DNA of 64,000 nt from an uncultured bacterium (GCA_964632485.1 CAZWDO010000015.1:1-64000); one strand, 5' to 3'; shown: positions 4,511-32,801, counted from the first letter of the stretch. The notes: a model not told the origin generated them from the sequence alone. Program-made: numbers and translations.

Positions 4511-5311
4511 TCAATCGATCGTAAACTGTGATAAATCTCCGGCAGGTTCGGGAAATTGGGGTTTCATTTTTTCCAGTGTCTTACGTATCTGTCGAGCGAT
4601 CAAATAATTGCGGTACTTGTTGCTATTGGCGGGAACAACATACCAGGGAGCATACCGGGTTCCCGTTGCGCTTAGCGTTTGCTCAAACTGCTCTATATAT
4701 CGATCCCACAGTTCGCGTTCCTTGATATCCTCTGCATTAAATTTCCAGTTTTTTGCGGGATTTTTGAGCCGCTCTTCCAGCCTTTTTTTTTGTTCGTCTT
4801 TGGAAATATAGAGAAAAAATTTTAGTATTCGAGTTCCTGAATGGAATAATAAACGTTCAAATTCATTTATATAACGGTAGCGTTGACGGCATTCCTTATC
4901 GTCAATCCAGTCGTGAACTTTGACAATTAGCACATCTTCATAATGGGACCGGTTAAAAATTTTAATCATCCCTTTAGTCGGGGTTTCTTTGTGAATCCGC
5001 CACAAGAAATCATGAGCCAGTTCTTCGGCGTTGGGGGCTTTAAATGAAGTGACTTCGCAGCCCTGAGGATTAAGGGGCCCGAAAACCGATCGAATTGTAC
5101 CATCTTTGCCGCCCGCATCCAGCGCTTGAAATATTATAAGTAAAGATTGCCGGTTTTCAGCGTAAAGTTTGACCTGAAGATCATCAATGCGACTGATTTC
5201 AATCGCCGTTTGTTTTAAAAGTTCTTCCTTTCCTAATGATTTCGGACGCTTGAAATCAATTTTGGAAAGTTTGACTTTGTCAAAATGGTTGATTTTGATT
5301 AATCTGGCCAT
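4511..5311 (-). CDS. ppk2: Polyphosphate kinase 2 family polyP:nucleotide phosphotransferase
   Basis: QALDAGGKDG Walker A, FNRSHYEDVL, APWYVVPA motifs. Confidence 0.93.
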   Translation of the reverse strand: MARLIKINHFDKVKLSKIDFKRPKSLGKEELLKQTAIEISRIDDLQVKLYAENRQSLLIIFQALDAGGKDGTIRSVFGPLNPQGCEVTSFKAPNAEELAHDFLWRIHKETPTKGMIKIFNRSHYEDVLIVKVHDWIDDKECRQRYRYINEFERLLFHSGTRILKFFLYISKDEQKKRLEERLKNPAKNWKFNAEDIKERELWDRYIEQFEQTLSATGTRYAPWYVVPANSNKYRNYLIARQIRKTLEKMKPQFPEPAGDLSQFTID

Positions 5312-5494
5312 ACGGTTCCTTTGTTTTAATTGGCAATAGAATTATTACAATATATATTATAATCCTCTGAATTAAAATTGTCAAGTCATATTTAAAAATA
5401 ATATGAGAAATGGGTTTATATTGGTTTAAAATGAATGATCTGAGGAATTATCAAATTTTTGAGTAAAATAACCTAAAAAACAATTTTTTTTTAC

Positions 5495-5523
5495 TTGACA
5501 AAATGTGTGAATCGGGTTAAGTT
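5495..5523 (+). promoter_or_regulatory. Putative sigma70 promoter of the pspA-like operon
   Basis: TTGACA-17 nt-TAAGTT. Confidence 0.35.
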
Positions 5524-5552
5524 ATGATTAAACGATGAAAGGAGCTATTTCT

Positions 5553-6299
5553 ATGTTTAAACGTCTGGCCAATTTATTCCGTGGTTTCGTAGGATTATTT
5601 ATTTCCGGTTTGGAAAAGCAGAATCCGGAAGCGTTGATTGAGTTGGAAAAGGAGAATTTACGTACCCAGATTGCTCGTTTCAATGATAATCTGGCGACGC
5701 ATGCCGGTTTTGTAGAACGGCTGATGCGGCAAATTAAGAATCTGGAAACACAGGAACGTGAATTAACAGCTAAGGTGTCAGTGCATATAAAAGCCGGTAA
5801 TCGTAAGATCGCCGGGGAAATTGCATTGCAGTTGCAGTCTGCCAAGACCCAGCTCCAGGAAAATCGTGAACAATTGGTCCAGGGGGAAGAAACCTATAAG
5901 AAATTGATTAAAACTCGCGATATTACGGTACAAGAAGCCAAGCAAAAAATTGAGAAACTGAAAATGATGCTCTCCGAAACAAAAATTCTGGAAGCTCAGG
6001 CTGAATTACAGGAAATGGCTTCTGGAATGATCAGTGAAATCGGCGGTACCGGCGACACACTCAATCGAGTAGAGGAATACCTGGACGAACGGCGCGATAA
6101 AGCAGCCGGTCGGGCGCGCGTGGCCTCCTCCTCAATTGATATGACCGAAGTCACGATGAAAGAAGCTGAACAGGAAGCCCTGGCTGATCAAGCTTTGGCT
6201 GAATTTGAAATTGCTCACGGTTTCTCATCTCCTATAACGCCGGAATCCCCTACAACTGAAGGTCCGGCCAAGGAATTGGGACCTAAAATAACGGAATAA
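5553..6299 (+). CDS. PspA/IM30 (Vipp1/ESCRT-III-like) family protein
   Basis: N-terminal amphipathic helix MFKRLANLFRGF, E..NP motif, long coiled coil, acidic/Pro tail; start moved to ATG 5553 behind AAAGGAG RBS. Confidence 0.85.
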   Translation: MFKRLANLFRGFVGLFISGLEKQNPEALIELEKENLRTQIARFNDNLATHAGFVERLMRQIKNLETQERELTAKVSVHIKAGNRKIAGEIALQLQSAKTQLQENREQLVQGEETYKKLIKTRDITVQEAKQKIEKLKMMLSETKILEAQAELQEMASGMISEIGGTGDTLNRVEEYLDERRDKAAGRARVASSSIDMTEVTMKEAEQEALADQALAEFEIAHGFSSPITPESPTTEGPAKELGPKITE

Positions 6300-6336
6300 C
6301 AACCCTTTATTCATAATTATATTAAGGAGGACCTTT

Positions 6337-8079
6337 ATGCCCGATCAAGTTGGACCCACTAAATTGGGAAAATTTGTGATTTTTTTGTTTGTGTTGGCGT
6401 GTTTGTTAATCGCCGGGTACTATTTTCGTAGCACTCTCTTCCCAAGCCATGAGGGAACAGGCGATCAGACTATCGATATGGATGAATTCAAAAAGCAGCA
6501 GGGTGTCGAGGCGATGGACCCGAAAGGAATCACGACGGTCAGCGAATACTCTTATATCCCTTCTGACAAACTACCTCCGGTTAAAGGCGTTAGTAGTTAT
6601 AAATGGGATGAAAAAGAAAAAGTCGTAAATTTTCCGATCAATATTTGGATTGGATGGTTACCGATTGTAGCTGCCAACCATGGATTCAGACCGAATACGG
6701 AGAGCGAGTTTTATAAGAAATTCGGATTTAAAGTCAATTTAAAGATTATTGACGATCCGGTAATCGCGCGCGATGCTTTTGCATCAGGTGAAAGTCAAAT
6801 CCTTTGGGGAACAATGGATATGATGGTTCTCTTCGCTCAGGAGCTAATGAAGGATTCGCGAACGGCGCCTCGTGTTTTCCAGCAAATTGACTGGTCCAAT
6901 GGGGGAGATGGGATTGTGGTACGCAGCAGTGTTGAAAGTGTCCGCGATCTGGTTGGCAAGACGATTGTTTATGCTCAAAACAGTCCTTCGCAATATTTCA
7001 TCAACAATTTGTTGCTCAATGCGGGAATTCAACCTTCCCAGGTTAAACATAAATTTACCGCGACCGCATTCGAAGCAGCGGCGGCTTTTGTGGCTGATCC
7101 CTCTATTGATGCCTGCGTTTCATGGGCTCCCGATATTTATAATATTCCTGATAAAGTCAAAAATACCCGCATTTTAACGACCACTGCCGAAGCCAATAAA
7201 CTGATCGCCGATGTCTGGGCTGTCCGGGCCGATTTTGCCACTGATCATGCTGATATCGTCGAAGGCCTGGTAACGGGTATCTTCGAGGGAATGCGCATGT
7301 TGAAAAATGATCAGGATTTAGCTAAAACCTTTCAGTGGATGGCTGAGGGATATGGTATGACTGTGGATGATATTCAAGCCATGGTTCAGGATGCGCATAT
7401 CACTAATTTTGCTGAAAATAAGGAATTCTTCCTCAATGCCAATTCCCCGGTCAATTTTGAACGGACCTGGAAAAACATCACCTTTGTGTATAAAGAATTG
7501 GGATTAGTAGCCACACCCACTCGGTTCGATGAAATCATGGATTTTTCGATGATCAAGAAACTGGATAAAAAGGGTCTTTTCAAGGATATGATTGACGAGA
7601 ATATTGCCAGTTTCGCGCCGACCAGCTACAGCCGAGTAAACGCTGAAAAGCCGATTCTGACACAAACTATCCGCATCAATTTTTACCCCAATTCTTCTAA
7701 TCTTTTTGAACCCCAACATGATGATATTGGAAATGTATTAGCGAACACGTTTTATGATCCAAATGTCAATGCGACGATGGAAAAAGTGGCTCGTCTGGTT
7801 GGGCAGTATGATCGGGCGGTTATCGCCATTATTGGGCATACTGATGGTTCAATGCGGGGCGCGGTCCCCGAATCGGCGGTGCAGGAGCTTTCCTTAGAAC
7901 GCGCCAATTNNNNNNNNNNTCCATAATAAAATTTACAAACACCGTAGTTTAAATTTGATCCCAATAAGTTTGTGGTAGAGGGCAAAGCTTGGAACGAACC
8001 GGCTGATCCGCAGGACCCTGATAATCATGCCATGAATCGTCGCGTGGAAATTTCGGTTTACGCTCCGGAAAGCAAATAA
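6337..8079 (+). CDS. Membrane-anchored ABC solute-binding protein (NMT1/SsuA-like) fused to C-terminal OmpA peptidoglycan-binding domain; interrupted by assembly gap
   Basis: N-terminal TM; IWIGWLP, DWSNGGDGIV, LIADVW SBP motifs; OmpA motifs GHTD and LSLERAN before gap, and FVVEGKAW...NRRVEISVY* in the same frame after it (7948-8079). Confidence 0.85.
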
Positions 8080-8091
8080 CAAAGGGTGGTT

Positions 8092-8898
8092 ATGTTTCGA
8101 AATTTGTTACGTATCCGTTATCATATTCCCCGTTTGGAACAGATTGTACTGGGCTTCGTTCCCATTTTAACGATTCTTCTGCTTTGGTTTTTTAGCACAC
8201 TGGGTGAAGCCGAGGTTCGCTGGGTTTCACCCACGATTTTACCATCGCCAATTGAAGTCATTCGTTCGTTTCCTTCTCTATGGTTTCAGTCGGAACTGAG
8301 CCGTAGCGTTATTCTTAGTTTTACGAGAGTAATCACCGGATTTTTAGTAAGTTTATCAGTCGCATTTCCTTTAGGAATATTGATGGGCAGTTTCACTCGT
8401 GTTCGGGCCTTATTTGATTCATTGGCTACCTTTGGTGCCTATTTGCCGATTCCCGCTCTGGTTCCTCTGACCATGAGTATTTTTGGTATTGGTGAACTCC
8501 AGAAAATTATGTTCCTGGCGCTCGCTTTTTTTGTGTATTTGCTACCTCTTTTTGTCAAAGCTGTCGATGAAGTGGATAATGTTTACCTACAAACTGCCTA
8601 TTCTCTCGGAGCGCGCAAATGGCAAGTCGTCCGCCATATTCTCTTAGGAATTTCATTTCCACAACTTTATCATGCCATTCGATTGGGTTTTGGTATCGGC
8701 TGGACCTATATTATTATCGCTGAAATGGTGGCGGCGGATCGGGGACTGGGATACATCATCACCATTGCCCAACGCCGGGGTCCGCGTGAACATATTTATT
8801 TAGTGTTAGTTGTCATTGTAGTGATCGCTTTTGTAACGGATCGTATCCTCGTTAAATTAGGAGAAATCCTGTTTCCCTATCAGGAGCAAAAGTCATGA
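8092..8898 (+). CDS. ABC transporter permease (NitT/TauC/SsuC type)
   Basis: ILPSP, TM helices, EAA loop [22 protein letters not shown]. Confidence 0.92.
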
Positions 8899-9722
8899 AC
8901 TTTCCTGCAGTCGTTGAATTTAAAAATGTTTCTAAAATTTTCAATCCGGGTACTCCCTATGAATACAAAGCCTTGGAGAATTTAAATTTTCGTGTTGACG
9001 ATCTGCCTAAGGTAGGGGAGTTCATAGCAGTATTGGGGCCTTCCGGTTGTGGAAAATCTACGATGTTGAACCTATTGGCCGGATTTCAGGAAGTTTTTCC
9101 ACCTACATCCGGTGAAATTTTAGTGAGAGAAATTCCGGTGACGGGACCCGGCAAAGATCGGGCGATGATTTTTCAGAAATACAGTTCGTTCCCCCAGATG
9201 TCGGTTTTAAAGAACGTTCGGTTTGGTTTGGATATTAACCGGAAGGAAAATGGATTTAGCGATCAGAAAATTGATGAGATTGCCCGGGATTGGATTCGCC
9301 GAGTCGGTTTGTCCGGGCATGAAAACAAATATCCCCATCAACTGTCCGGCGGCCAGCAACAACGGGTAGCCATCGCGCGAACGCTGGCGATACGGCCGCG
9401 TATTATTCTGATGGATGAACCTTTTTCCGCCTTGGATGAACCCACTCGGATCGAAATGCAACGGCTGATAACCGAACTTTGGATGCAGGAAGAAGCGACG
9501 GTTTTTATTGTCACTCATTCTATTATAGAAGCTGTTTATCTGGGTGACCGAATATGGTTATTTACCCCGGCGCCCGGTAAAATCGGACAATCTTTCGACC
9601 AGATTCCTAAATACTCCACCGAAATCCCCGCTTTTGATGTCCAAAAAGATTCACAATTCCTGCAAATTGTCGATGAAGTTTCTCACTCCTTTCATGAAAT
9701 TGAACAAGGGAAAGGGAAATAA
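8895..9722 (+). CDS. ABC transporter ATP-binding protein (NitT/TauB/SsuB type)
   Basis: [31 protein letters not shown]. Confidence 0.95.
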
Positions 9723-9725
9723 TCT

Positions 9726-10616
9726 GTGCCTATATCTACTTATACCTATAAGGAGTTCCTGAAAACCGCCCTTCGATTACGGGTTGCGCTCCCTCTTTTG
9801 GGGAAAATGCCGCTCAACATTATGTTTATTCTATTTTTTTTAGTTTTGGGTTTAGCAAATCCGGCATTTTATTTTTTAGGGATTGCCTTTGAGATGGTTT
9901 ATCTCTTTTTTATCGCCAATCTTCCCGGAGTCAAGAAAGTAATCGAAGGGCAACTTCTTCTTCAACAAAAACAAAAGCAGGGCGATCAAACTCAGCGGTT
10001 GGCCGCTTCACTTGAACCTGTCGCCCGTGAGCGTTTTGTCAAATTACAAAATGTATGCCGCTCCATGCTCGATTCCTTTGACTTTAACCAAAATGGTGTG
10101 GTTGGTAAAGACGAGTTGAAGTCAGGCGGACTGAATCAACTATTAGGGATGTTTCTGCGTTTACTTTCAAGCCAGAAACGCGTTATGGCCATTTTAAAAG
10201 AAACAAATCCTTCATCTATCAGGGACGATATCCGAAAAATTGAAAAACAGTTGGAACAGCTTGAATCGGATTCGCCCATGGCTCGTTCTTTGCGCGGTAC
10301 CCTGGAGATTCAGAACCGCCGGTTGGTTAATCTGGAAAAAGCCCAGGAAAGCTCGAAAGTAATCGAAACGGAACTGGATCGGATTGAAAAACAGATTACT
10401 CTGATGCGCGAGGAAATGGCTGTCACCAGCGATGTCAGTCTCTTCAGCTCCCGACTCGATGGCGTTGTGGATTCATTACAGGGAACCACTCGCTGGATGA
10501 CCGAAAACGCCGATCTGTTCGGGTCTTTCGAACAAGTTGATTTTGCCGAGAATATTTTGGATAATAATATGCCGGAACCCACAAAAACTAAACAAAGAAG
10601 TCGAAGCGATGCCTAA
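9726..10616 (+). CDS. Hypothetical membrane protein with N-terminal TM hairpin and long coiled coil
   Basis: 296 aa, GTG start 3 nt after ATPase stop; hydrophobic N-terminal hairpin then heptad-rich region. Confidence 0.8.
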   Translation: MPISTYTYKEFLKTALRLRVALPLLGKMPLNIMFILFFLVLGLANPAFYFLGIAFEMVYLFFIANLPGVKKVIEGQLLLQQKQKQGDQTQRLAASLEPVARERFVKLQNVCRSMLDSFDFNQNGVVGKDELKSGGLNQLLGMFLRLLSSQKRVMAILKETNPSSIRDDIRKIEKQLEQLESDSPMARSLRGTLEIQNRRLVNLEKAQESSKVIETELDRIEKQITLMREEMAVTSDVSLFSSRLDGVVDSLQGTTRWMTENADLFGSFEQVDFAENILDNNMPEPTKTKQRSRSDA

Positions 10617-12402
10617 ACATTTTGTGATGCCCGAGTGGGCGCTAACCATGAATGAAATCTTCCGCGCTGATATCATCAGCCAGTTTGTGATAACCGGCAA
10701 TATCCACGATCTGATTCCGTTTAAGCTGGAAAGCGCTTTACATTATTATACGCTTCACGATTTTTTGTCGCATGTTTTATTTGAAACCTTTGATGTTGTA
10801 TTATTTTATGATCGGGGTAAAGGCATAACACTTGCGCAAGGCCGCGAACCTTTCAGCCAATTTCTTGAAATTATGGACCGATATGCCCATACCCAATATT
10901 CCGACGATGCGGGAACCAACCGCAATCCGGATAAAAAGCTGACCCATCCGGGTCTTTTACCGCGTCAACCCCAATATGCCCTTGAAATCCTGGATCGGTT
11001 TCTACGTTATGTCGGCCGTAATCCACAAAAAGACAAACCCCCGCTCTCGGTTGCAATTGTTTTGGAATACGCCAATTATCTTTTTCCGCGGGGAGAATCG
11101 ATCTATCTATCCAATGAATTGGGCAGTAATTTGATTACGGTTCTAAATTGGGCCCGTGATCCGGCGATCGGGGCGGCTACGGTGGCTACGGTTTTGACAA
11201 GCGAGACATTGGGTGATTTGAACCCGGCGATTGTCAATAATTCCTATGCAGCTATAATCGAGTTGCCCTTACCAGCGGTCGATGAGATCCATGACTATCT
11301 GGGATATCTCAGCATGCAGGAAACGCAGTTTAGTCGCTACTGTCCGATTGAAACCTCCATTTTAGCCACTAAATTGACCGGATTGAACCGGATTGGAATT
11401 AAAAGTATGATTTATCGTTCCTTGCGAAATGAGCAGGAGATCACTTATAAAGGAATTGCCCGCATTAAAAAAGAGATGATTGAAAAGGAGAGTTTTGATA
11501 AGCTTGAATTTATTGAAACCAATAGAACCCTGGATCAGGTTGCAGGACATGATAAAGCCAAGGAATGGCTGCGAGCTGATGCCCGTTTACTAAAAAGCGG
11601 CGTTTTGCAGGCCTTGCCCATGGGTTATCTGATCACCGGGCGGATCGGTACTGGTAAAACCTATTTAGTGCAATGTTTTGCCGGAGAGTGCGGTGTTCCA
11701 TTTGTTCAAATGAAGAATTTTCGCGACAAATGGGTCGGCGCCTCCGAAGCCAATCTGGAAAAAGTGTTTCAAATACTTCATGCTCTGGGACAGGTAGTCG
11801 TATTTGTTGATGAAGCAGATCAGGCTACCGGTAAACGCGATGGAGGAGAAGGGGATTCCGGACTTTCCGGCCGAATTTATGCAATGCTCGCCAAGGAAAT
11901 GGCAAACACCGATAACCGTGGAAAAATTATCTGGATTTTTGCAACCAGCCGTCCGGATCTGCTGGAGATCGATTTGAAACGACAGGGACGACTCGATATA
12001 CATATCCCTCTTTTCCCACCAGCCTCGGACGAGGATATCCGCGCAATGTTCCTGGCAATTGCCGCTAAACTTAAAATTGAACTCACTCCGGAAGCCATTC
12101 CACTACCGGCTCCCCAACTGGTGGGAATCAGCGGAAATGAAATCGAAGGACTCATGGTCAGATCCTTACGGGATTATGAATTGCGTAAAGCTGAAAATCC
12201 AACTCTGACACTCGCTATAACCCTTAAAGAAAATCTGATCAATTACCGTCCTTCAGCCCATACTAAACGACTTGAACTGATGGATCTTTTAGCCGTCAAA
12301 GAATGTACAGATAGCTGTTTTCTATCGTCTCAGTTCGTCAATATGACAGGCGAGGAGCTTGACCGCCGAATAGTATTGCTTAAGAGCGAGATAGATATAT
12401 AG
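10609..12402 (+). CDS. Classic-clade AAA+ ATPase with N-terminal (probably degenerate AAA-like) domain
   Basis: Walker A GRIGTGKT, pore loop DKWVG, Walker B VFVDEAD, SRH ATSRPDLLEIDLKRQGRLD; start moved to ATG 10609 overlapping upstream stop. Confidence 0.9.
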   Translation: MPKHFVMPEWALTMNEIFRADIISQFVITGNIHDLIPFKLESALHYYTLHDFLSHVLFETFDVVLFYDRGKGITLAQGREPFSQFLEIMDRYAHTQYSDDAGTNRNPDKKLTHPGLLPRQPQYALEILDRFLRYVGRNPQKDKPPLSVAIVLEYANYLFPRGESIYLSNELGSNLITVLNWARDPAIGAATVATVLTSETLGDLNPAIVNNSYAAIIELPLPAVDEIHDYLGYLSMQETQFSRYCPIETSILATKLTGLNRIGIKSMIYRSLRNEQEITYKGIARIKKEMIEKESFDKLEFIETNRTLDQVAGHDKAKEWLRADARLLKSGVLQALPMGYLITGRIGTGKTYLVQCFAGECGVPFVQMKNFRDKWVGASEANLEKVFQILHALGQVVVFVDEADQATGKRDGGEGDSGLSGRIYAMLAKEMANTDNRGKIIWIFATSRPDLLEIDLKRQGRLDIHIPLFPPASDEDIRAMFLAIAAKLKIELTPEAIPLPAPQLVGISGNEIEGLMVRSLRDYELRKAENPTLTLAITLKENLINYRPSAHTKRLELMDLLAVKECTDSCFLSSQFVNMTGEELDRRIVLLKSEIDI

Positions 12403-12417
12403 ACGTATCGTTATCGA

Positions 12418-14135
12418 TTATTGGCTGGTGAATTCATCCACCGGTACATTATCATAAACATTAAAAATATCCTGGTATTGGAGCAATCCGATCACCTGGC
12501 CGCTGGCGCGGCTTAAAATTGGCAATCGGCTGAGATTGCTTTTACTGAATATCAGAACCGCCTGGTAAAGATTATCATCCTCATAGCAGTAAACAGGAGG
12601 ATAAGCGATTTCCATTACCGATGTATTCTGATAATCCGTCTTATATACAAATTGCATTATCCGGCCCATGGGCAACATTCCCACAATTTTTTTGTTTTTA
12701 TCTGTTACAGGAATTGGGAAGATAAAGCTGGGATTGCTCATAATCGTTTTTAATTCTGAAATTGGAGTCTTTTCATCAATTGTTAATAAATTGGAATAAG
12801 GTTTGTAAATTCGGTTAACCGGTATGCGGGAAAGAATAAATGGGGGGATTCCCTTTAAATAAATCGGAGAATGAAAACGGTCAACCGCCTGGTTGCGATA
12901 GATGGCAAATGAATGGGAAAGAATGATAATCAATGTATTCACAAAGAGAAGGGGAATGATCAGAGAAAAAGAACCCGTCATTTCACAGGCCATAATTAGC
13001 GCGCCAATGGGCGCTTTGGCAACACCGGTAAAAAAAAACCGGCCATTCCGACTAAAACAAATGCGGTTTGCGATGGTATCGGTAAAGGGAAATGAAGCAT
13101 GATTAGCAATTGGTGAACCATGGCGCCCGTCATTCCGCCGATGAAAAGCGAAGGACCAAAAACTCCGCCACTGCCGCCGGTACCTATGGTGAAACAGGTC
13201 GCTATGAGTTTCAGGAATAGCAATGTCAGAATGAATATAAATGGAAAGGAAGTGGTGGTTAATTCGATCAGGGGTTTTAGGTTGGCTCCCATTGCGCGGG
13301 GGAAAAAAAAGCCAATCAATCCAACTAACAAACCACCTATGGCTGGTTTGAGGTAGATTGAGATTTTTAGCCGACTGGTCATACTGCGAATCAGATAAAA
13401 AAATTTGACGAAAAATGCGCCCATCAGCACACATATAATGGCTAATATGATATAAGCCGGAAACTCTTGATAACTCTTAAAGAGTGATTGCGGGAAATTT
13501 AGAACATTTTTTCCGGGAACCCAAAAGAGATAGATAAAATACCCACTAATTGAAGAGATGATGGCCGGTATCAGCGCCCGCGCTTCAAAATCTTCACGAT
13601 AGATGATTTCTATACTGGCAAAAGCTCCACCCAGAGGCGCTTTGAAAATAGCGCCGATCCCCCCGGCTGCCCTAGCTAACATCAAAGAGCGGGTCATATC
13701 GACATCCAATCGAAAGACACGCGCGATTTTTGAACCAATTCCAGAGCCAATTTGAGCAATAGGTCCTTCTACGCCACCACTACCCCCAAAACCTAAAGTG
13801 AAAATCGAGGAAATGGCTTTGACTATTGATACTTTGATCGGAACATATCCTTCATTTTGGTGGAAAGCTTTGGCAACGGCATCAATCCCGTGCCCCTCAG
13901 CTTCCGGCGCAAAACGGTAGATTAAAACTGCGCTGATCGTCGCGCCAATTGCCGGGAAAATTAAATAATAATATCGGGGCAATTGAAATAAAAACCCTGA
14001 TAATTGCTGCAATAAAAAATAGAACAAGACCGCGGAACTGCCGGTTAATAGACCAATCAATGCAGAACTGAATATTAATTGCCATTTAATGGGGAGCGAT
14101 GATATATATTTCAGAGAAAATGCCACTTTCTTCAT
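12418..14135 (-). pseudogene. ClC chloride/H+ transporter with C-terminal CBS pair, frameshifted at a T9 tract
   Basis: GHGID, GGSGGVEGP, IFKAPLGG, GSGGVFGP in ORF 12996-14252 (likely start 14135); continuation FTGVAKAPIG plus CBS domains in ORF 12418-13434; junction at A9 run 13030-13038. Confidence 0.85.
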
Positions 14136-14377
14136 TGACTCTATTTTAATCAATTCCCTTGTAAATGTCAAGTCATATTTAGATTTAATTTGAGTAAGAC
14201 AATAAATGGAGTTTAAGCTTAACCGGAAATCTATTCTCCACAGATATGGCATATTTGCGCTATGCTGAAATCATGTAGATTGTTCAGTTCGCTAATAATG
14301 AAATCTTGTAGAATTTCATGTTGTACGAAAATTATTTAATACTTGATTTTATGAATCTTTAGGTTATATTAATTAAT

Positions 14378-18074: not shown

Positions 18075-19037
18075 TTATTCCTCCTGAGTTTTATTTTTTA
18101 TAACTGTGATTTGTTTAAAATGTTCCAATCGGAAACAAGAATCAGCAATGTTCAACGATTCTCCATCAATTTGAGCTGATACTGGAACGCTTGTATCGAT
18201 TTCCACTCTATGCGCCTGATAATAATTTCCATTCCGCTGGAGCCATTTTACCAAACCGGGAAAGAAACGGGTAAACATAAGCAGAAAATAATGAAAACAA
18301 TGCTTGATTACAAGAATTTCCACAATAGAATCATCACACCGCGCATCTTTCGAGATAATTGAACCACCGGCGTAGGAATTGACGTTACTGACTACCAGTC
18401 CTTTTAATCCCCGCGGGAATTCAAGAATTTGGGGAGTATCGCCGGAATGAAGGGTTATTTTAATCGGCGTATATATACGGTGATGAATGAAAATCAAACC
18501 CAGCGACAGGTAAAGTAAACGGTTCATCATATTCGATTTTAATACCCGATTTAATTTTTTCCGCCAATTTAAAAAATGATTGAGAACATAGGCGTCATAT
18601 CCAATACTAAAATAATTAATCATCGGATGTTGATTGACCATAAAAATGTCATAGGATATAGTCTGTGGGTTGGATAAAACTGCTTCAATTTGTATTTTTA
18701 AATGCTTTTTTAGATTCGTATTATTTTCAGGAGGAGAAAATCCTAAAAATAGCGCTAAATCATTACCCACTCCAAAAGGGATAATCCCGATCCGCGCAGA
18801 TAGCTTCTGCTTAATAGCATAAAGAATTACCATTGCCGCCGTGCCATCCCCGCCCATCGCTAAAATGAATCGGGTTTCTTCGGGAATTTGATGAGCATCA
18901 ATTCCATCCTGCCGGGTTTTAACCAGACGATAGGTGAGTTGTGGCCAGGTTTCACTCATGATAACCGGAATCAATTCTATGATTTTTTTTCCCAGTCGGT
19001 AACCGGATACCGGATTGATTACAAAGACGATATCCAT
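18075..19037 (-). CDS. Diacylglycerol/lipid kinase family protein
   Basis: INPVSG, GGDGT, PFGVGNDLA, NYFSIGYDA, QIDGE. Confidence 0.9.
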   Translation of the reverse strand: MDIVFVINPVSGYRLGKKIIELIPVIMSETWPQLTYRLVKTRQDGIDAHQIPEETRFILAMGGDGTAAMVILYAIKQKLSARIGIIPFGVGNDLALFLGFSPPENNTNLKKHLKIQIEAVLSNPQTISYDIFMVNQHPMINYFSIGYDAYVLNHFLNWRKKLNRVLKSNMMNRLLYLSLGLIFIHHRIYTPIKITLHSGDTPQILEFPRGLKGLVVSNVNSYAGGSIISKDARCDDSIVEILVIKHCFHYFLLMFTRFFPGLVKWLQRNGNYYQAHRVEIDTSVPVSAQIDGESLNIADSCFRLEHFKQITVIKNKTQEE

Positions 19038-19038
19038 C

Positions 19039-19773
19039 CTATCGATATCGCTCCGGTTGCAGGGTCAATGAGTAATTTCCTTGTAAATGATACTCGGCGA
19101 TCATCCCCAGCGCCATTGAGATATTTGTTGCTTCCTCCAATTCATCATGCATGTCGGTCCCGATGCTGATGGGAATCAGCGCTTCCTCAATTTTTTGAAG
19201 CAGAGCGGTCGGGTAAAAGTTAAATCCGGGGGAATATATGCCCTCTTTATCAATATGACAATTACGCGTCCCATCGGTAAGTTCTATTCCCAGTGAAAGG
19301 AGTTTCAATTCTTCGAGAAGGCGTTTTATTTTTGATTCTTTCAGGTGGAATAAGGTAATAGTGGGTATTTTATCAGTCGAAAAAAGCGTGTGGACCAGAT
19401 AAATAGGTCGCTGATAGACTTTGCGAATTTGTTCGATTTTTTTAAAATCCTTAAATCCGTTGACATACTCTATATTTAGATAATCAAAATAACTTAGAAG
19501 CGGGGAAAAGGGAATATCCCACTGCTGAATATCCAATTCTCCTCCAATTAAAATCATTGTTTTCGGATAATCAATCCGTATTTTTTCAATTTTATCCCGA
19601 TAGTTCCTGATTTGATATTCATAAAACAGTGAGGGTTTAATACTGAAAATGTGGTCAGAAAAGCCAATTGCTTTATATGAGCGTTCGCTTAAGAGTCGGG
19701 TAATTTCCTCCGGATAAAATCGGCCATCCGAAAAAACCGTATGGATGTGAAAATTAGATAACGGGATGTTCAT
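19039..19773 (-). CDS. PHP domain phosphoesterase
   Basis: HIHTVFSDG, FSDH, GTDMH metal ligands. Confidence 0.85.
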   Translation of the reverse strand: MNIPLSNFHIHTVFSDGRFYPEEITRLLSERSYKAIGFSDHIFSIKPSLFYEYQIRNYRDKIEKIRIDYPKTMILIGGELDIQQWDIPFSPLLSYFDYLNIEYVNGFKDFKKIEQIRKVYQRPIYLVHTLFSTDKIPTITLFHLKESKIKRLLEELKLLSLGIELTDGTRNCHIDKEGIYSPGFNFYPTALLQKIEEALIPISIGTDMHDELEEATNISMALGMIAEYHLQGNYSLTLQPERYR

Positions 19774-19774
19774 A

Positions 19775-19945
19775 TCAGGAATTAGTGTGTTGTTTCATTT
19801 TTTCACGTAAGCGATCTTCCTGTTCTATGCGGTGCTTTTCCTGGTTTTCACGGTTGAATCGTTGTTGTCGTTTAATTTTAATCCTCAGATAAATGTACAT
19901 TAATCCCAGAATGGCTAAAAGAAGCAGGCTGGTAGTTGTACTCAT
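19775..19945 (-). CDS. Small single-TM protein with charged tail (56 aa)
   Basis: Below ORF-track cutoff. GAAGG RBS; MSTTTSLLLLAILGLMYIYLRIKIKRQQ...; stop 1 nt before the PHP start. Confidence 0.7.
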   Translation of the reverse strand: MSTTTSLLLLAILGLMYIYLRIKIKRQQRFNRENQEKHRIEQEDRLREKMKQHTNS

Positions 19946-20067
19946 GGTTACCTTCTTTCGATGGATTTAAATAACTTGGGAATGTGGCTGATTATACGAG
20001 CGCATCAAAATAATGCTCCCTGCGCTGTGTAAGGTTTTATTTTGAATACCAACGGAACTCCTTTTGA

Positions 20068-21045
20068 TTAATTTCTATGCATAATTGAATCATAAATCAT
20101 GGTAAGGCCACCCACCATATTAACGGCAATAACGCTGCCGTAACCGATAATCGCGTATAGGGCAATATCATCAATGGTAATTCCATAGGTTTTAAAAAAA
20201 AAGTACATACTGATTTCGCGGATACCGGAACCATTTAACGAAATAGGAAGCAGTTGGATGATATAAATAATTGGCGTATAGGCAAAGATGGCATAGAAAG
20301 GCAAATGACGGCCGAATGCCAGAAATACGATCCAGGTGTTTATAATCATGCAAAAATAAATGCCCAGAGTGATGAAAAAAGTGATCATGATGACACGGGG
20401 TGAGCGTCGGTATTCATTGATGGATGTCTGAAAATCAGCGATTTTGTGTAGTCCCTTTTGCCAAAGTTTAATGTTGAAAATCCCTGCCAGATATCGGGTT
20501 ACACTGGGTGAAAAAATCAAATAAAGCGCTATGAATAATAGTAAATATACTGCAATGACACTCATGCGCTGTATGGCTGGCAGGATCATAAATGTTGAAG
20601 GAAAAACAATGAAAAGGAGTAATCCCAGAATGAAAAAAATTAATAGACCTACTAACCTGGAAAATAAGGCGGAGCTATAGGAATCGGTTTTATTGGGTAG
20701 AGTGCGGGCCAGTCGCCACGCTCTTAAAAGATCTCCACTAATAGTAGAAGGAAGGAAAAGTTGGAAAAAAAGTCCAAATAAATGATACTTAAACAATTTC
20801 ATAAAGGATGGCAGTGTCGGTATTTTTACTTTCAAAAGAACTTGCCAGCGTAAAACCTGCTGTACTTGCATTAGTATTATCAGTAGAATCGCAATTAGAA
20901 AATAATACCATGAAATATTTTTTAATTTTTCAAGGATTGTAAAGAAATTGACCTTATAAAAAATGATAAAAAAAAACAGAATCGTTACTGTAATTTTTAA
21001 TACCGTAAGGATTCTGTTTTTCCAGATATCATTAATTTTAATCAT
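20068..21045 (-). CDS. Lysylphosphatidylglycerol synthase TM domain / flippase-like protein (UPF0104)
   Basis: RWQVLL, FLPSTISGDLLR, LPISLNGSGIRE. Confidence 0.88.
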   Translation of the reverse strand: MIKINDIWKNRILTVLKITVTILFFFIIFYKVNFFTILEKLKNISWYYFLIAILLIILMQVQQVLRWQVLLKVKIPTLPSFMKLFKYHLFGLFFQLFLPSTISGDLLRAWRLARTLPNKTDSYSSALFSRLVGLLIFFILGLLLFIVFPSTFMILPAIQRMSVIAVYLLLFIALYLIFSPSVTRYLAGIFNIKLWQKGLHKIADFQTSINEYRRSPRVIMITFFITLGIYFCMIINTWIVFLAFGRHLPFYAIFAYTPIIYIIQLLPISLNGSGIREISMYFFFKTYGITIDDIALYAIIGYGSVIAVNMVGGLTMIYDSIMHRN

Positions 21046-21692
21046 TGAGAATCAGATTCGGAAAAATAATATGCCTGATAAGTGAAAACGTTCATTTCAC
21101 CTTTTTTCCATTCATCCCCTGCCATCCCGGCTTTATTGCACAGATAGGTCAGAAAATCGGCTTTCTTGGGAAGCTGTTCCCATACCTGGGGAAGAAAGGT
21201 AGCCTGGTGATAACCTTTTTTAATGATTAAGCCATCAATATGAGGACGAATTTTATCCAGTAAATCGTTACTATCGGCATATTCCAGGGGTTGAGCGGGA
21301 GTAAGAATCGTAATTTCAATATCAAGTAGGGGAAGTTCGTTTTTTTTAACGGGAGAAAAGCGGTGATCAGAAAAAGCAGCATGGGTCGCGTTGTCAATAA
21401 CTGCTTGAAAGAGAGGTTCCTTCCCCTCGAGATAGCCAATACATCCCCTCAATTGACCTTCTTTATGCAGAGTTACAAAACAGCCGGTCAATGTTTTAAG
21501 ATTATCTGACATCGAATCGGAATTGGGCGCTGGAACGGATTTTTGTTCGAGTTTTGCCTCGATCGTATGCCGGGCCAATTGCAGTAAATATGATTTTTCT
21601 TCCGGTGATAATTGATTGGCCATAACTTCACTCCTGCTTTGTATGAATAGTATTAAAATGGCGATACTCAAACAACCGATCAGAAGTTTCAT
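21042..21692 (-). CDS. AMMECR1-domain protein (AmmeMemoRadiSam system protein A)
   Basis: GCFVTL, LRGCIG, AAFSDHRF, ATFLPQVWEQ, LCNKAG; alternative start at 21623. Confidence 0.92.
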   Translation of the reverse strand: MKLLIGCLSIAILILFIQSRSEVMANQLSPEEKSYLLQLARHTIEAKLEQKSVPAPNSDSMSDNLKTLTGCFVTLHKEGQLRGCIGYLEGKEPLFQAVIDNATHAAFSDHRFSPVKKNELPLLDIEITILTPAQPLEYADSNDLLDKIRPHIDGLIIKKGYHQATFLPQVWEQLPKKADFLTYLCNKAGMAGDEWKKGEMNVFTYQAYYFSESDSQ

Positions 21693-22072
21693 GATTTCGC
21701 GGCGATGACTTCAATTTCCAATTCGGCGCCGAGAGGCAATGCAGCAACCTGGAAAGCCGAACGAGCCGGAAATGGCTGGCTGAAATAGGTGGCATAGACT
21801 TCGTTAACAGCTTTGAAGTTATTAATATCTTTTAGAAAAACGGTGGCTTTTATAACATCGCTCATTTTAAAGCCGGCAGCTTCAATGATTGATTTCAGAT
21901 TATCGAAAACCCGACGAGCCTGGGCTTGTATATCGCCTTCAACCAATTTGCCGGTCGCCGGATCCAATGGAATCTGGCCGCTGGTAAAAAGCATGTTGTC
22001 GACCTTCATAGCCTGGGAATAGGGTCCGATGGCCTGCGGGGCATTTTCGGTGGCGATTGCTTGTCGTTCCAT
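21689..22072 (-). CDS. ridA: RidA/YjgF enamine deaminase
   Basis: APQAIGPYSQA, SGQIP, FPARSAFQVAALP, EIEVIA. Confidence 0.95.
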   Translation of the reverse strand: MERQAIATENAPQAIGPYSQAMKVDNMLFTSGQIPLDPATGKLVEGDIQAQARRVFDNLKSIIEAAGFKMSDVIKATVFLKDINNFKAVNEVYATYFSQPFPARSAFQVAALPLGAELEIEVIAAKS

Positions 22073-22096
22073 TGTGTATTCTCCTTTAAGATTAAA

Positions 22097-22705
22097 TTAA
22101 GAGGGTGTTGGTTTCTGCTCATCATGTTTGTAAACATGATAGATTCGTTGCAGTACTGTATAATTGGTTGTTATTGCCAAAAAATAGATAACATACGTGA
22201 TACCGGGAAAAGGCAAAAAACAACTGACAGCTAAAAGTACAACCCGTTCCGGACGTTGAATAAGCCCGATGGAACAGGGGATTCCGAGACCTTCGGCCCT
22301 GGCGCGGACATAACTGACCATGAGCGAACCGGAGATAGTGAAAAAAACAGCGATCAATCCGGCCATTTCCTGAATTCTGATAAAAAAGAATGAGATTCCA
22401 AGAAAAAGGAATAACTCGGAATAGCGGTCTAACGTTGAATCGAGCAGCCCGCCGAAACGTGTCACCCGGTTCTGGCCGCGGGCAATATGGCCGTCCAATA
22501 AATCAAAAAGTCCGCCAAGGAGGATTAATAGACCACCCCATTGAAGACTACCTAAACCCACTGGACCAGCGGCAATGAAATTCGCTAAAAAACCCAAAAA
22601 TGAGATAATATTCGGTGAAATATGCAGCCATATAAAAAGCTTGATTAAGGGTGTGAAGACAAAAATAATACCTTTTTTTGTGTATAAATGTATTTTATCC
22701 ATCAT
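22097..22705 (-). CDS. CDP-alcohol phosphatidyltransferase
   Basis: DLLDGHIAR...GGLLDSTLDR; SYVRARAEGLG. Confidence 0.93.
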   Translation of the reverse strand: MMDKIHLYTKKGIIFVFTPLIKLFIWLHISPNIISFLGFLANFIAAGPVGLGSLQWGGLLILLGGLFDLLDGHIARGQNRVTRFGGLLDSTLDRYSELFLFLGISFFFIRIQEMAGLIAVFFTISGSLMVSYVRARAEGLGIPCSIGLIQRPERVVLLAVSCFLPFPGITYVIYFLAITTNYTVLQRIYHVYKHDEQKPTPS

Positions 22706-22713
22706 GGGAGGGA

Positions 22714-23709
22714 TTAACCAGCCGCCTGAACCGCCGTAATAGTGGCGACGTTAACAATATCTTCGACGCTGCAACCGCGGGAAAGATCATTAACCGGTTT
22801 TTTAAGGCCCTGTAGGAATGGACCGACGGCCTGGGCTTTTGCTAAGCGTTCAACTAATTTATATCCAATATTTCCCGATTGAAGGTCTGGGAAAATTAAT
22901 ACATTGGCATGGCCGGCAATAGGGCTGCCCGGCGCCTTTTTTTGGCCAATCTTTTCAATAATGGCGGCATCCAACTGAAATTCACCATCCAGCTTTAAAT
23001 GCGGCGCTTTGGCTTGAGCGATTTTTACCGCTTGTTGTACCTTGTCAACCAGTTCATGACCAGCGCTGCCCTTGGTCGAAAATGACAGCATCGCCACACG
23101 CGGCTCAATATCACCCAAAACCCGGGCAGTTTCAGCAGAACTGATCGCGATTTCTGCCAACTGTTCCGCATTGGGATCAGGATTAACCGCGCAATCAGCA
23201 AATATAAACATCCCATTTTCACCCAGATCGCAATTTGGGACTAACATGATAAATGCGCTGGAAACGATCGAAATCCCTGGTTGCGTCTTGATAATCTGCA
23301 AGGCTGGACGAATAGTGTCAGCGGTTGAATGCTCCGCGCCCGATACTAAACCATCGGCATCGCCATTATGCACCATCATCGTACCAAAATAGACACTGTC
23401 TTCTACAGTCTGCCTGGCTTGTTCCAGCGTGATGCCTTTACTCTTGCGTAAATCATAAAACAATTGAGCATACTGTTCGGTTAATGGATCGCGCCGAGGA
23501 TCGATGATACGAATATCATCAATGTTCACGGCTTGCTCTTGAGCAACATTTTTAATTGCAGCCGTATCTCCGATTAAAATTACTGTACACAGTTTTTCCC
23601 GATCTAAAATCGAAGCCGCTTGAACTGTACGGGGTTCCGTTCCTTCAGGTAATACGATGCGTTTTTTTTGCAAACAAGCTTTTTGCCGAAACTTCTCAAT
23701 CAAATCCAT
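22714..23709 (-). CDS. pta: Phosphate acetyltransferase
   Basis: IVLPEG, FADCAVN, DGEFQLDAA, GNIGYK, PVNDLSRG. Confidence 0.97.
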   Translation of the reverse strand: MDLIEKFRQKACLQKKRIVLPEGTEPRTVQAASILDREKLCTVILIGDTAAIKNVAQEQAVNIDDIRIIDPRRDPLTEQYAQLFYDLRKSKGITLEQARQTVEDSVYFGTMMVHNGDADGLVSGAEHSTADTIRPALQIIKTQPGISIVSSAFIMLVPNCDLGENGMFIFADCAVNPDPNAEQLAEIAISSAETARVLGDIEPRVAMLSFSTKGSAGHELVDKVQQAVKIAQAKAPHLKLDGEFQLDAAIIEKIGQKKAPGSPIAGHANVLIFPDLQSGNIGYKLVERLAKAQAVGPFLQGLKKPVNDLSRGCSVEDIVNVATITAVQAAG

Positions 23710-32150: not shown

Positions 32151-32801
32151 TCAAGTCTTTTTTTGCGAATTGAAAATTTTCTTTTCTTCACCACGCGCGA
32201 GTCTCAGAATGTTAGAGCGGTGAGTCCATACAATTATCCAGGCGCACAATAGACTAAAATAAAAATAGTAATGAGTCTCATGCGTTGCTATGAAGAAAAC
32301 AATAATGGGATATACCAGGGCGCCTGTCAAGGACGCTGGGGATACAATACGGGTTATGAAAAGAACACTAAGGGCAATTATTAAAGCAAAAAACGATGCT
32401 AAGGGCGTAAGGGCTAAAATGACACCGAGCGCGGTCAATACGCCTTTTCCTCCCCGGAAACCGGTATATAGGGGGAAAACATGACCTACGATAGCAAAAA
32501 TTCCACAGAAAATCTTAAATAATGCAGTCGTGTCGTTGGATAGTAAACCGCCAAAATTTTGCCAGGAACCATTCAACCAATCTGAAAAAAAGAATACCGG
32601 TAAAAAACCTTTTAAGATATCAATGAAAATAACTGGTAACGCGGCTTTCCAACCCAAAATCCGAAAGACATTAGTTGCCCCTGCATTGCCGCTGCCCAGG
32701 GTACGGATATCAATCCCCTGGACAAATCTCCCCATTAAATAAGCCGTGGGAAACGATCCCAGCAAATATGACAAACCAAATGCCACGAATATCATCATCA
32801 C
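32151..32801 (-). CDS. plsY: Glycerol-3-phosphate acyltransferase PlsY
   Basis: YLLGSFP, GSGNAGATNV, GHVFP, FRGGKG, HRSNI. Confidence 0.96.
   Translation of the reverse strand: MMMIFVAFGLSYLLGSFPTAYLMGRFVQGIDIRTLGSGNAGATNVFRILGWKAALPVIFIDILKGFLPVFFFSDWLNGSWQNFGGLLSNDTTALFKIFCGIFAIVGHVFPLYTGFRGGKGVLTALGVILALTPLASFFALIIALSVLFITRIVSPASLTGALVYPIIVFFIATHETHYYFYFSLLCAWIIVWTHRSNILRLARGEEKKIFNSQKKT

Follow-up and report, generated by a model that had tools for sequence, protein, structure and literature searches.

A conserved PspA–AAA gene core and its transporter add-on: comparative analysis of a candidate membrane-remodelling cassette in bacteria

Introduction

In the ESCRT-III/Vps4 systems of archaea (CdvB/CdvC) and eukaryotes (Snf7/Vps4), a protein of the ESCRT-III superfamily is paired with a classical-clade AAA ATPase that has an aromatic pore loop, and polymer turnover proceeds by subunit extraction. 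How the PspA/Vipp1 polymers of bacteria are dismantled is an open question. In its available text, a 2025 review considers that a Vps4-like ATPase appears to be absent in bacteria (PMC7619361), and the accessible part of Makarova et al. (2024) restricts systems of vps4 plus ESCRT-III to archaea and eukaryotes and places a gene for a ProX solute-binding protein (SBP) in one archaeal ESCRT locus type. The locus analysed here lies on a 64,000-nucleotide (nt) stretch of DNA from an uncultured bacterium (GCA_964632485.1 CAZWDO010000015.1:1-64000), called the window below, with positions counted from its first letter. Like the ESCRT-III/Vps4 loci, it encodes an ESCRT-III-superfamily protein, here a PspA-like one, together with a classical-clade AAA ATPase carrying an aromatic pore loop, and the same logic of turnover may be expected of it. 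Between these two genes lie four others, for parts of an ATP-binding cassette (ABC) transporter and for a transmembrane (TM) protein here called TMcc.

As a prediction, this type of operon has been published before. In the portions available, Ravi et al. (2024, mSystems; PMC11237479) describe PspA with a two-domain AAA protein whose N-terminal copy is inactive, and longer operons that add a TM ‘Snf7’, an ABC ATPase, a permease and a PBPB-OmpA protein; they propose that ATP-dependent remodelling of the membrane is tied to the transport of solutes, the OmpA part binding peptidoglycan. In its genes and their architecture, including the two-domain AAA with an inactive N-terminal copy, the locus in the window matches that description, so it is a further member and the association itself is not new. 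An earlier annotation made from the window's sequence alone (the sequence-only reading) had rightly allowed that a comparative survey might have listed the operon. The accessible part of the paper gives no counts, and those presented below are new. Also new are the dissection into a core and an add-on, the corrected assignment of domains, a deep paralogous cassette, the SBP's anchor topology and the finding that the Snf7 label could not be confirmed. A term search of the available text of Popp et al. (2022) returned no mention of such an AAA or OmpA protein, and no experimental study of this operon was found in the literature searched.

The classical Psp systems (E. coli PspF-ABC, M. tuberculosis ClgR-PspA-PspM-PspN) are also alike in encoding PspA with a small integral membrane partner, and in E. 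coli PspA is functionally tied to an AAA+ protein. The present locus differs from them in having no PspB, PspC or PspF, and its AAA is not an enhancer-binding protein.

Results

The six genes are a conserved unit

Six open reading frames (ORFs), all on the + strand, span 5553-12402:

5553-6299, + strand: PspA-like protein of the ESCRT-III superfamily, 248 amino acids (aa), Pfam PF04012 PspA_IM30
6337-8079, + strand: SBP-OmpA, a solute-binding protein fused to an OmpA-like peptidoglycan-binding domain, with one N-terminal TM helix and a short conserved cytoplasmic tail
8086-8898, + strand: permease of the TauC/SsuC/SaoP type of ABC importer, Pfam BPD_transp_1 at E = 8.2e-19
8895-9722, + strand: ABC ATPase of the TauB/SaoA/NrtD type, Pfam ABC_tran at E = 3.7e-28; its start overlaps the permease stop by 4 nt
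9726-10616, + strand: TMcc, 296 aa, belonging to no named family, modelled as a hydrophobic hairpin with a cytoplasmic all-helical bundle
10609-12402, + strand: classical AAA ATPase of 597 aa, probably tandem, its D1 degenerate and its D2 motif-intact; its start overlaps the TMcc stop by 8 nt

The junctions, 5' to 3', are +37, +6, -4, +3 and -8 nt, which bears out the earlier claim of six co-oriented genes with gaps of at most 37 nt or overlapping ends. No convincing intrinsic terminator was seen at any of the five junctions.

In a scan with one genome per species, 269 stretches were found to encode a relative of TMcc and 80 of these were kept as loci. The presence of each gene was scored by tblastn with the window proteins, and flank was considered sufficient where at least 7 kb upstream and 4.5 kb downstream were available (52 loci). 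All six genes lie on one strand in 49 of these 52, the exceptions being two loci without the AAA (L066, L074) and one without PspA and the SBP (L001). The kept loci come from Acidobacteriota (Holophagales, Thermoanaerobaculia, Aminicenantes), Calditrichota, Gemmatimonadota, Sumerlaeota, Edwardsbacteria, Eisenbacteria, Krumholzibacteriota, Riflebacteria and Ozemobacteraceae, and from metagenome-assembled genomes labelled Clostridia, Delta- and Gammaproteobacteria. Co-occurrence of the six families across phyla, which the sequence-only reading had put forward as a check on its proposal, is thereby found, and supports the six genes being one conserved unit, beyond chance.

The order of the genes is that of the window in 59 of the 63 loci that hold all six. 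The SBP-OmpA gene stands first in three loci (L072, L079, L080), of which L072 has a second SBP-OmpA gene and L080 probably also has one, to judge from tblastn positions; in L027, PspA sits between TMcc and the AAA. An ABC ATPase match lies directly upstream of TMcc in 79/80 loci, the remaining locus having just 130 nt of upstream sequence. There is no conserved flanking gene, the commonest flanking family occurring in 6/63 loci, and where an insert separates TMcc from the AAA, the inserted genes are of unrelated kinds (RNase D-like in L020, Ser/Thr kinase-TPR in L047).

In the exceptional loci, the missing genes are present at other places in the same genome. The genomes of L066, L074 and L053 encode the AAA at another place (52% identity), that of L033 has a separate pair of PspA (54%) and AAA (36%), and the Holophagales genomes of L001 and L002 have an adjacent pair of PspA (68%) and SBP-OmpA (74%) on another contig or farther along. 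Thus, the cassette splits into [PspA-SBP], [permease-ABC ATPase-TMcc(-AAA)] and [PspA-AAA] parts, and throughout these splits TMcc keeps its place after the ABC ATPase gene. Divergence of the AAA is greatest in two variants (36-37%); their PspA, which adjoins the AAA, is likewise the most diverged (54-58%).

Orthologues of the SBP-OmpA protein are 68-78% identical across phyla, and in the SBP tree Acidobacteriota predominate with other phyla interleaved. The window's own phylum was represented by three genomes, and both relatives lack TMcc and this type of PspA. The high identity across phyla, the interleaved tree and this patchy presence suggest that the cassette spreads horizontally.

PspA and the AAA ATPase form the core

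A second sample, not selected for the feature, consisted of 121 genomes from the class to which one carrier belongs; four of them had already been reached via the feature. Profile matches among them were as follows:

TMcc profile: 19/121 genomes
AAA-D1 profile: 43/121 genomes
PspA-like profile: 44/121 genomes
Pfam PspA_IM30: 49/121 genomes, 47 of them over the cut-off

All 43 genomes with AAA-D1 have a PspA-like match, none having the AAA without PspA, and all 19 genomes with TMcc fall within the AAA-D1 set. The one additional PspA-like genome (G042) has a weak match with an internal stop. Seven genomes have a Pfam PspA match over the cut-off and no AAA-D1; in six of these the protein scores 132-154 bits (canonical). 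An AAA that is never without PspA in the sampled genomes makes a concrete candidate for the dismantling of bacterial PspA polymers, and the proposed functional tie between the two proteins has this unusually strong genomic association behind it. The interpretation given by the sequence-only reading is, as a whole, partly supported.

Eight loci from the 121-genome sample were inspected. Three of them (L096, L097, L103) have the order PspA, SBP-OmpA, permease, ABC ATPase, a gene in the TMcc position and AAA, at 24-46% identity to the window. The middle gene of L097 encodes a 289-aa TMcc homologue (hhalign probability 96.7%, E = 4.5e-10, 206 columns), whose stop overlaps the AAA start by 4 nt; in the same locus the OmpA domain of the SBP scores 54.8 bits and PspA 76 bits. 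The other five loci have no transporter: L100 is a PspA-TMcc-AAA triad, and L098, L099, L101 and L102 are adjacent PspA-AAA pairs. Because pairs and triads occur without the transporter, the core, as judged from gene content, is PspA plus AAA, with TMcc a frequent third part and the transporter an add-on that occupies the same place in two deep lineages. The candidate system would then span forms from a minimal pair of genes to six genes with a wall-tethered transporter.

The distance matrices of the six proteins were compared over 53 loci and the window, an exploratory exercise in which the loci are not independent and no significance is claimed. Pairwise correlations of r = 0.70-0.92 fit one shared history. 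Partial correlations were 0.47 for TMcc-AAA, 0.35 for permease-ABC ATPase (a known complex), 0.34 for ABC ATPase-AAA, 0.24 for PspA-SBP and 0.17 for SBP-permease. In this exploratory comparison TMcc is closest to the AAA, not to PspA, which the sequence-only reading had proposed that it recruits.

The PspA-like protein

The window PspA matches PspA_IM30 (PF04012) with 46.1 bits against a cut-off of 33.9, over residues 7-223 and profile positions 2-213 of 220, and is the only such match in a genome that is 98% complete. An amphipathic N-terminal membrane-binding helix is a feature of PspA/IM30 proteins. Here residues 1-18, with a hydrophobic moment of 0.54 (an amphipathic N-terminal helix), are among the most conserved segments of the orthologue alignment. 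A C-terminal helix is also conserved (EAEQxALADQALxEF...), and it is followed by a terminal motif, [KR]x[LM]GP, kept in 61/65 orthologues. Orthologues are 54-72% identical across phyla. The protein is a divergent PspA, in that the profile of its orthologues matched no PspA or Vipp1 chain of the PDB at E <= 1.

The terminal motif was considered as a tag for the AAA, and was rejected as such, as it shows no covariation with AAA adjacency.

The AAA ATPase is Cdc48-like and not a Vps4 family member

Pfam AAA (PF00004) matches residues 365-491 of the 621-aa ORF and is the sole Pfam match at E <= 0.01. These residues belong to D2, which has the features of a classical AAA unfoldase of the Cdc48/FtsH/PAN clade: Walker A, Walker B, pore loop 1 and a second region of homology with two arginines. 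Its motifs are invariant in 29 sequences (Walker A GRIGTGKT, Walker B VFVDEAD, pore loop KWVG, arginine-finger motif KRQGRLD). At the sensor-1 position, where Asn is expected in AAA proteins, this family has Ser. The best PDB sequence matches are the D2 domains of VAT/Cdc48/p97 (E = 4e-35), with FtsH at 5e-19, and NCBIfam scores are 72.9 bits for FtsH, 71.1 for CDC48, 59.8 for PAN and 34.0 for CdvC, whose cut-off is 650. Orthologues are 47-56% identical, and full-length relatives occur at 51-58%.

D1, approximately residues 1-300, lacks a P-loop and the catalytic Walker B Glu, and has D/E-Y at the Walker B position. In the AlphaFold2 (AF2) model (predicted local distance difference test score, pLDDT, 79.3) the first 300 residues are an alpha/beta domain with a helical lid, and Foldseek aligns the whole model with tandem AAA proteins (Rix7, p97, Cdc48, Drg1, Pex1/6) over 491-670 columns at E ~1e-14. 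Profile comparison of D1 with D2 gave a probability of 0.14%, which is not significant; its single alignment sets QFVITGN..D opposite GYLITGRIGTGKT. The D1 profile had no significant match in the PDB. No Pfam match to a MIT, Vps4_C or double-psi barrel domain was obtained, and D1 begins within ~20 residues of the N-terminus. At the other end the family has its own helical extension with a conserved KECTD motif.

The protein is therefore a classical-clade AAA, probably tandem, Cdc48/p97-like in its D2, and not a member of the Vps4 family, since it has neither MIT nor Vps4_C, is modelled as a D1-D2 tandem, and scores 34 bits with CdvC against ~72 with FtsH and CDC48. The Vps4-like partner of the sequence-only reading does not survive as a statement of family membership, and stands as a functional analogy only. 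The nearest known proteins are Cdc48/p97/VAT and their relatives (Rix7, Drg1/AFG2, Pex1/6). The best sequence match of D2 is to the D2 domains of Cdc48/p97/VAT, and tandem AAA proteins of this group align with the full model over the length given above. They differ in that the present protein has no N-terminal double-psi barrel, has a D1 without P-loop and catalytic Glu, and carries the extra KECTD extension.

Relatives of the AAA were also seen outside the cassette. Full-length proteins at 26-32% identity occur in five plasmid records (Paenibacillaceae megaplasmids), that of Paenibacillus polymyxa pSC2 (L095) lying among small hypothetical genes without a PspA context, and the phage family phrog_8638, of similar length, matches at E = 1.5e-33. 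The D1-D2 family is thus also found in other contexts (plasmid, phage), which are possibly mobile.

TMcc, a predicted membrane hairpin protein in which no similarity to Snf7 was found

TMcc has no Pfam or NCBIfam match. Its relatives, many of them of 260-310 aa, number 1,636 representatives at E <= 1e-3, and orthologues are 33-45% identical. In the AF2 model (mean pLDDT 87.8) a short helix at the N-terminus and a beta-hairpin precede two short hydrophobic helices (about residues 30-44 and 47-64), after which come six cytoplasmic helices, one of them 50 residues long. The hydrophobic hairpin has a conserved NPxF(W) turn (NPGFW), invariant glycines G42 and G52, and an invariant Glu56 in its second helix. 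This charged residue within a membrane hairpin might sense or conduct protons. The deep TMcc paralogue of L097 retains a Glu in an equivalent hairpin setting (GAEGLW).

Ravi et al., in the text available (PMC11237479), label the TM protein a Snf7 homologue. In contrast, TMcc showed no such similarity in profile, Pfam, PDB or fold searches. Comparison of TMcc with the PspA family by hhalign gave a probability of 0.4%; Pfam searches with 35 members at E <= 10 had no Snf7 or PspA among the matches listed; and a PDB profile search returned no ESCRT-III chain, its matches being mostly short and PsaF-like. Foldseek with the TMcc model had no PDB match at E <= 1e-3. A wide fold search gave generic helical matches with a best Z of 10.4 (VirB6-type stalk, F-BAR, I-BAR and designed bundles), which is under the quoted helical noise level, and the best 50 entries of the two fold searches include no ESCRT-III entry. 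We could not reproduce the Snf7 label, helical proteins being hard to place.

The nearest named cluster to TMcc in Atlas is Rv2743c/PspM (score 0.86, 181/256 features), which is a lead only. An identity of TMcc with PspM was rejected, the PspM Pfam model (PF25587) having no match in the genome at E <= 10.

An SBP predicted to be fixed at both ends

SBP-OmpA matches the Pfam families NMT1 and Phosphonate-bd, and its SsuA/TauA-like NCBIfam scores are under the equivalog cut-offs (SsuA_fam, 48.4 against 163.5). The profile of its orthologues matches OmpA-like Omp38 (4.3e-12), PomB/MotB, YiaD, TauA (3.2e-7) and SsuA. For the permease the best NCBIfam models are SaoP (E = 1.4e-38) and TauC (E = 1.8e-32), both under the equivalog cut-offs, and the ABC ATPase scores 198.5 bits with TauB against a cut-off of 357. 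By family, the transporter is assigned to the TauABC/SsuABC class, with all scores under the equivalog cut-offs.

The C-terminal OmpA-like domain has the NRRVEI-type ending shared with the peptidoglycan anchors MotB/PomB, Pal and YiaD. At the N-terminus, residues 9-30 are hydrophobic. The Cys in this signal region is not conserved among orthologues, which argues that the segment is a membrane anchor and not a lipobox or lipoprotein signal. The preceding cytoplasmic start, KVGPTxLGK, is conserved among orthologues, with Gly, Thr and Gly invariant. Thus, its sequence predicts a protein fastened in the inner membrane at one end and to the peptidoglycan at the other. The SBP, permease and ATPase families are those of the TauABC/SsuABC/NrtABC importers; what sets this transporter apart is that its SBP carries a fused peptidoglycan anchor and is kept in the inner membrane by a TM helix of its own.

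The sequence-only reading had listed this gene as an SBP-OmpA fusion, and one correction applies: the frame is interrupted at 7909-7947, where 10 N (7910-7919) are followed by 28 nt with in-frame stops. Both sides of the break are in one frame, and the span of 581 codons compares with 572-594 aa in 66 orthologues; the window's 39 nt correspond to 9-10 residues in them. Contigs of the probable source run end at 7908 and restart at 7967. A contig from an independent marine run (a sister strain) crosses the gap, covering 7788-9565, and falls 12 nt short of the window between 7913 and 7945; it would therefore have 27 nt, or 9 codons, as in the orthologues, and read through in frame. Because the flanks share a frame, the span fits the orthologues and the marine contig bridges the gap, the break most likely arose as an artefact of scaffolding. 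Of the window's two runs of N, each of 10 N, the second, at 53801-53810, lies inside an ORF (52874-54265) and, like the first, resembles a scaffold gap of fixed length.

Over 5429-8250, a stretch holding PspA, SBP-OmpA and the first part of the permease gene, independent marine contigs (runs X2 and X3) diverge from the window by ~4-9%, against no more than 2 letters per piece over 8671-12700; upstream of about 5369-5429 their sequence is unlike that of the window. These differences suggest that the PspA-SBP sub-module has been recombined or exchanged between close strains.

Discussion

A candidate remodelling machine and its alternatives

The reading that we favour, to which we give about an even chance, is that an AAA anchored by TMcc remodels PspA assemblies in a self-contained inner-membrane module to which the transporter is an add-on. 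Gene content, domain make-up, the intact catalytic motifs and the conserved order and co-occurrence are shown, and from them the contacts between the proteins, the substrate of the AAA and the ligand are inferred. By means of its amphipathic N-terminal helix PspA would be held to the cytoplasmic side of the membrane, where it would assemble like other PspA/ESCRT-III proteins. The tandem AAA would be a hexamer whose active D2 ring threads substrate through the KWVG pore loops, with the nucleotide-dead D1 ring providing a scaffold or docking surface, and TMcc, translationally coupled to the AAA, would hold or regulate the ring at the membrane by means of its hydrophobic hairpin. Extraction or unfolding of PspA subunits by the AAA would then give polymer turnover in the manner of Vps4 acting on ESCRT-III, though the N-terminal solution is unrelated. 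The ABC importer and its SBP, as an add-on, may couple the machine to uptake of a small solute (the SBP class being that of sulfonate, taurine and nitrate), to the state of the periplasm or cell wall, or to both.

The ESCRT-III/Vps4 systems differ from this arrangement in that the present AAA has neither a MIT domain nor the C-terminal domain of Vps4, and probably two AAA domains where Vps4 has one. The likeness is an analogy, probably of independent origin, and not a matter of membership. If the AAA does remodel PspA, the cassette would be a convergent invention of the ESCRT-III/Vps4 logic, and would offer a compact system for reconstitution. A more ambitious form of this idea, which we hold to be rather improbable, is that bacteria have evolved a complete ESCRT-III cycle of their own, made up of a PspA polymer and a TMcc-AAA recycler, and that in the six-gene form the SBP is a ‘molecular ruler’ that gates it. 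The SBP would dock on the permease only while the membrane is at its normal distance from the wall. Detachment (plasmolysis, envelope damage) or loss of ligand would alter the cycling of the ABC ATPase, and TMcc would relay this to turn PspA remodelling on or off; the invariant Glu in the TMcc hairpin could add sensing of the proton-motive force.

Several points weigh against the TMcc-AAA remodelling of PspA. Co-transcription of the six genes is a reading of gene spacing alone. D1 fits an AAA fold on the predicted model and the length of the Foldseek alignments, the sequence profiles being not significant. The AAA has no MIT-like domain for recognition of PspA, and the PspA terminal motif is kept in three loci with the AAA elsewhere and lost in one clade that has the AAA. 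The PspA-AAA partial correlation (0.22) is below those of TMcc-AAA, permease-ABC ATPase and ABC ATPase-AAA. Finally, in E. coli PspA regulates the AAA+ protein PspF and is not its substrate, and by analogy the direction could be reversed here. PspA would then regulate or adapt the AAA, and membrane stress would free AAA-TMcc to act on another client. That E. coli PspA keeps the AAA+ activator PspF inactive is described in the available text of the 2025 review (PMC7619361). The AAA is never found without PspA whereas PspA is found without the AAA, which fits a need for PspA to control the AAA, and the modest PspA-AAA partial correlation also sits well with this polarity. However, the AAA has no DNA-binding or other output domain, only the features of a pore-loop unfoldase, and the minimal PspA-AAA pairs show no other obvious client, and we regard the reversed polarity as unlikely.

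A client might instead be sought in the transporter. The closeness of D2 to Cdc48/p97/VAT, the conserved cytoplasmic tail of SBP-OmpA with its invariant Gly, Thr and Gly, the ABC ATPase-AAA partial correlation of 0.34 and the constant place of TMcc after the ABC ATPase gene in the cassette would all suit a membrane-protein dislocase, in which the TMcc-anchored AAA extracts or recycles SBP-OmpA or the transporter by way of the SBP tail and PspA seals the bilayer. Since PspA-AAA pairs and PspA-TMcc-AAA triads exist without SBP or transporter, the transporter cannot be the general client of the AAA, and we think this proposal quite unlikely. That the operon is an ordinary importer of a nutrient or osmolyte, co-transcribed with stress genes and without physical coupling to them, already seems very unlikely: the SBP, permease and ATPase do resemble a complete TauABC/SsuABC-type importer, but the six genes stay together in 49/52 loci and again in a lineage 24-46% identical, and an SBP fused to a peptidoglycan-binding domain, TM-anchored and 68-78% identical across phyla would be unusual for nutrient uptake. 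Hardly any weight is given to anti-phage defence or another mobile accessory system. The cassette is patchily distributed (TMcc and the PspA-like gene are missing from both relatives in the window's phylum), the SBP tree has its phyla interleaved, flanks vary, and there are weak PADLOC matches to IetA and mad3 as well as the resemblance of phrog_8638 to the AAA; yet the PADLOC matches reflect generic ABC/AAA similarity (39.7 bits for IetA) and four of the proteins have none, the flanks in the window are housekeeping genes, and there is no nuclease, toxin or sensor of the kind that defence systems typically have.

Flanking genes and control sequences

The remaining features of the locus lie on either side of the cassette and in the spacer ahead of it:

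4511-5311, - strand: ppk2, the divergent flank, Pfam PPK2 at E = 4.6e-70
~5497-5525, + strand: promoter-like element TTGACA-17-TAAGTT ahead of the PspA-like gene, a consensus match by direct reading
5538-5544, + strand: ribosome-binding site AAAGGAG, a consensus match 8 nt before the ATG at 5553
12418-14252, - strand: clc, the convergent flank, 15 nt from the AAA stop

The divergent ppk2 and convergent clc bound the operon, as had been claimed from the sequence. The promoter-like element and ribosome-binding site lie in an AT-rich spacer of 240 nt common to the PspA-like gene and ppk2, where a consensus scan gave further promoter-like sites that are consensus matches only. The clc gene, for a CLC chloride channel, consists of two overlapping ORFs, one with Voltage_CLC (12996-14252) and one with the end of the CLC domain and two CBS domains (12418-13434), a split that reflects either a frameshift or an assembly error.

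A ppk2 gene (46% identity; G052:C84, 658-1368) also adjoins the PspA-AAA pair of L101, as ppk2 adjoins the cassette in the window. This is probably a coincidence, since ppk2 does not occur within 9 kb in any of the 80 cassette loci.

The sequence-only reading reported no pspB, pspC or pspF nearby. This holds for the contig, but genes with PspC domains are present on two other contigs of the genome: there are four matches, two each on C14 (75525-76253) and C10 (56236-56619) of G000, close together on each contig and unlinked to the only PspA gene.

The remainder of the window holds housekeeping genes (FTHFS, MetH, Der, PlsY, AspRS and similar). Some membrane-lipid genes lie 6-20 kb downstream of the cassette (window positions 18075-23709 and 32151-32801), coding for a diacylglycerol kinase-like protein, LPG_synthase_TM, a CDP-alcohol phosphatidyltransferase and PlsY.

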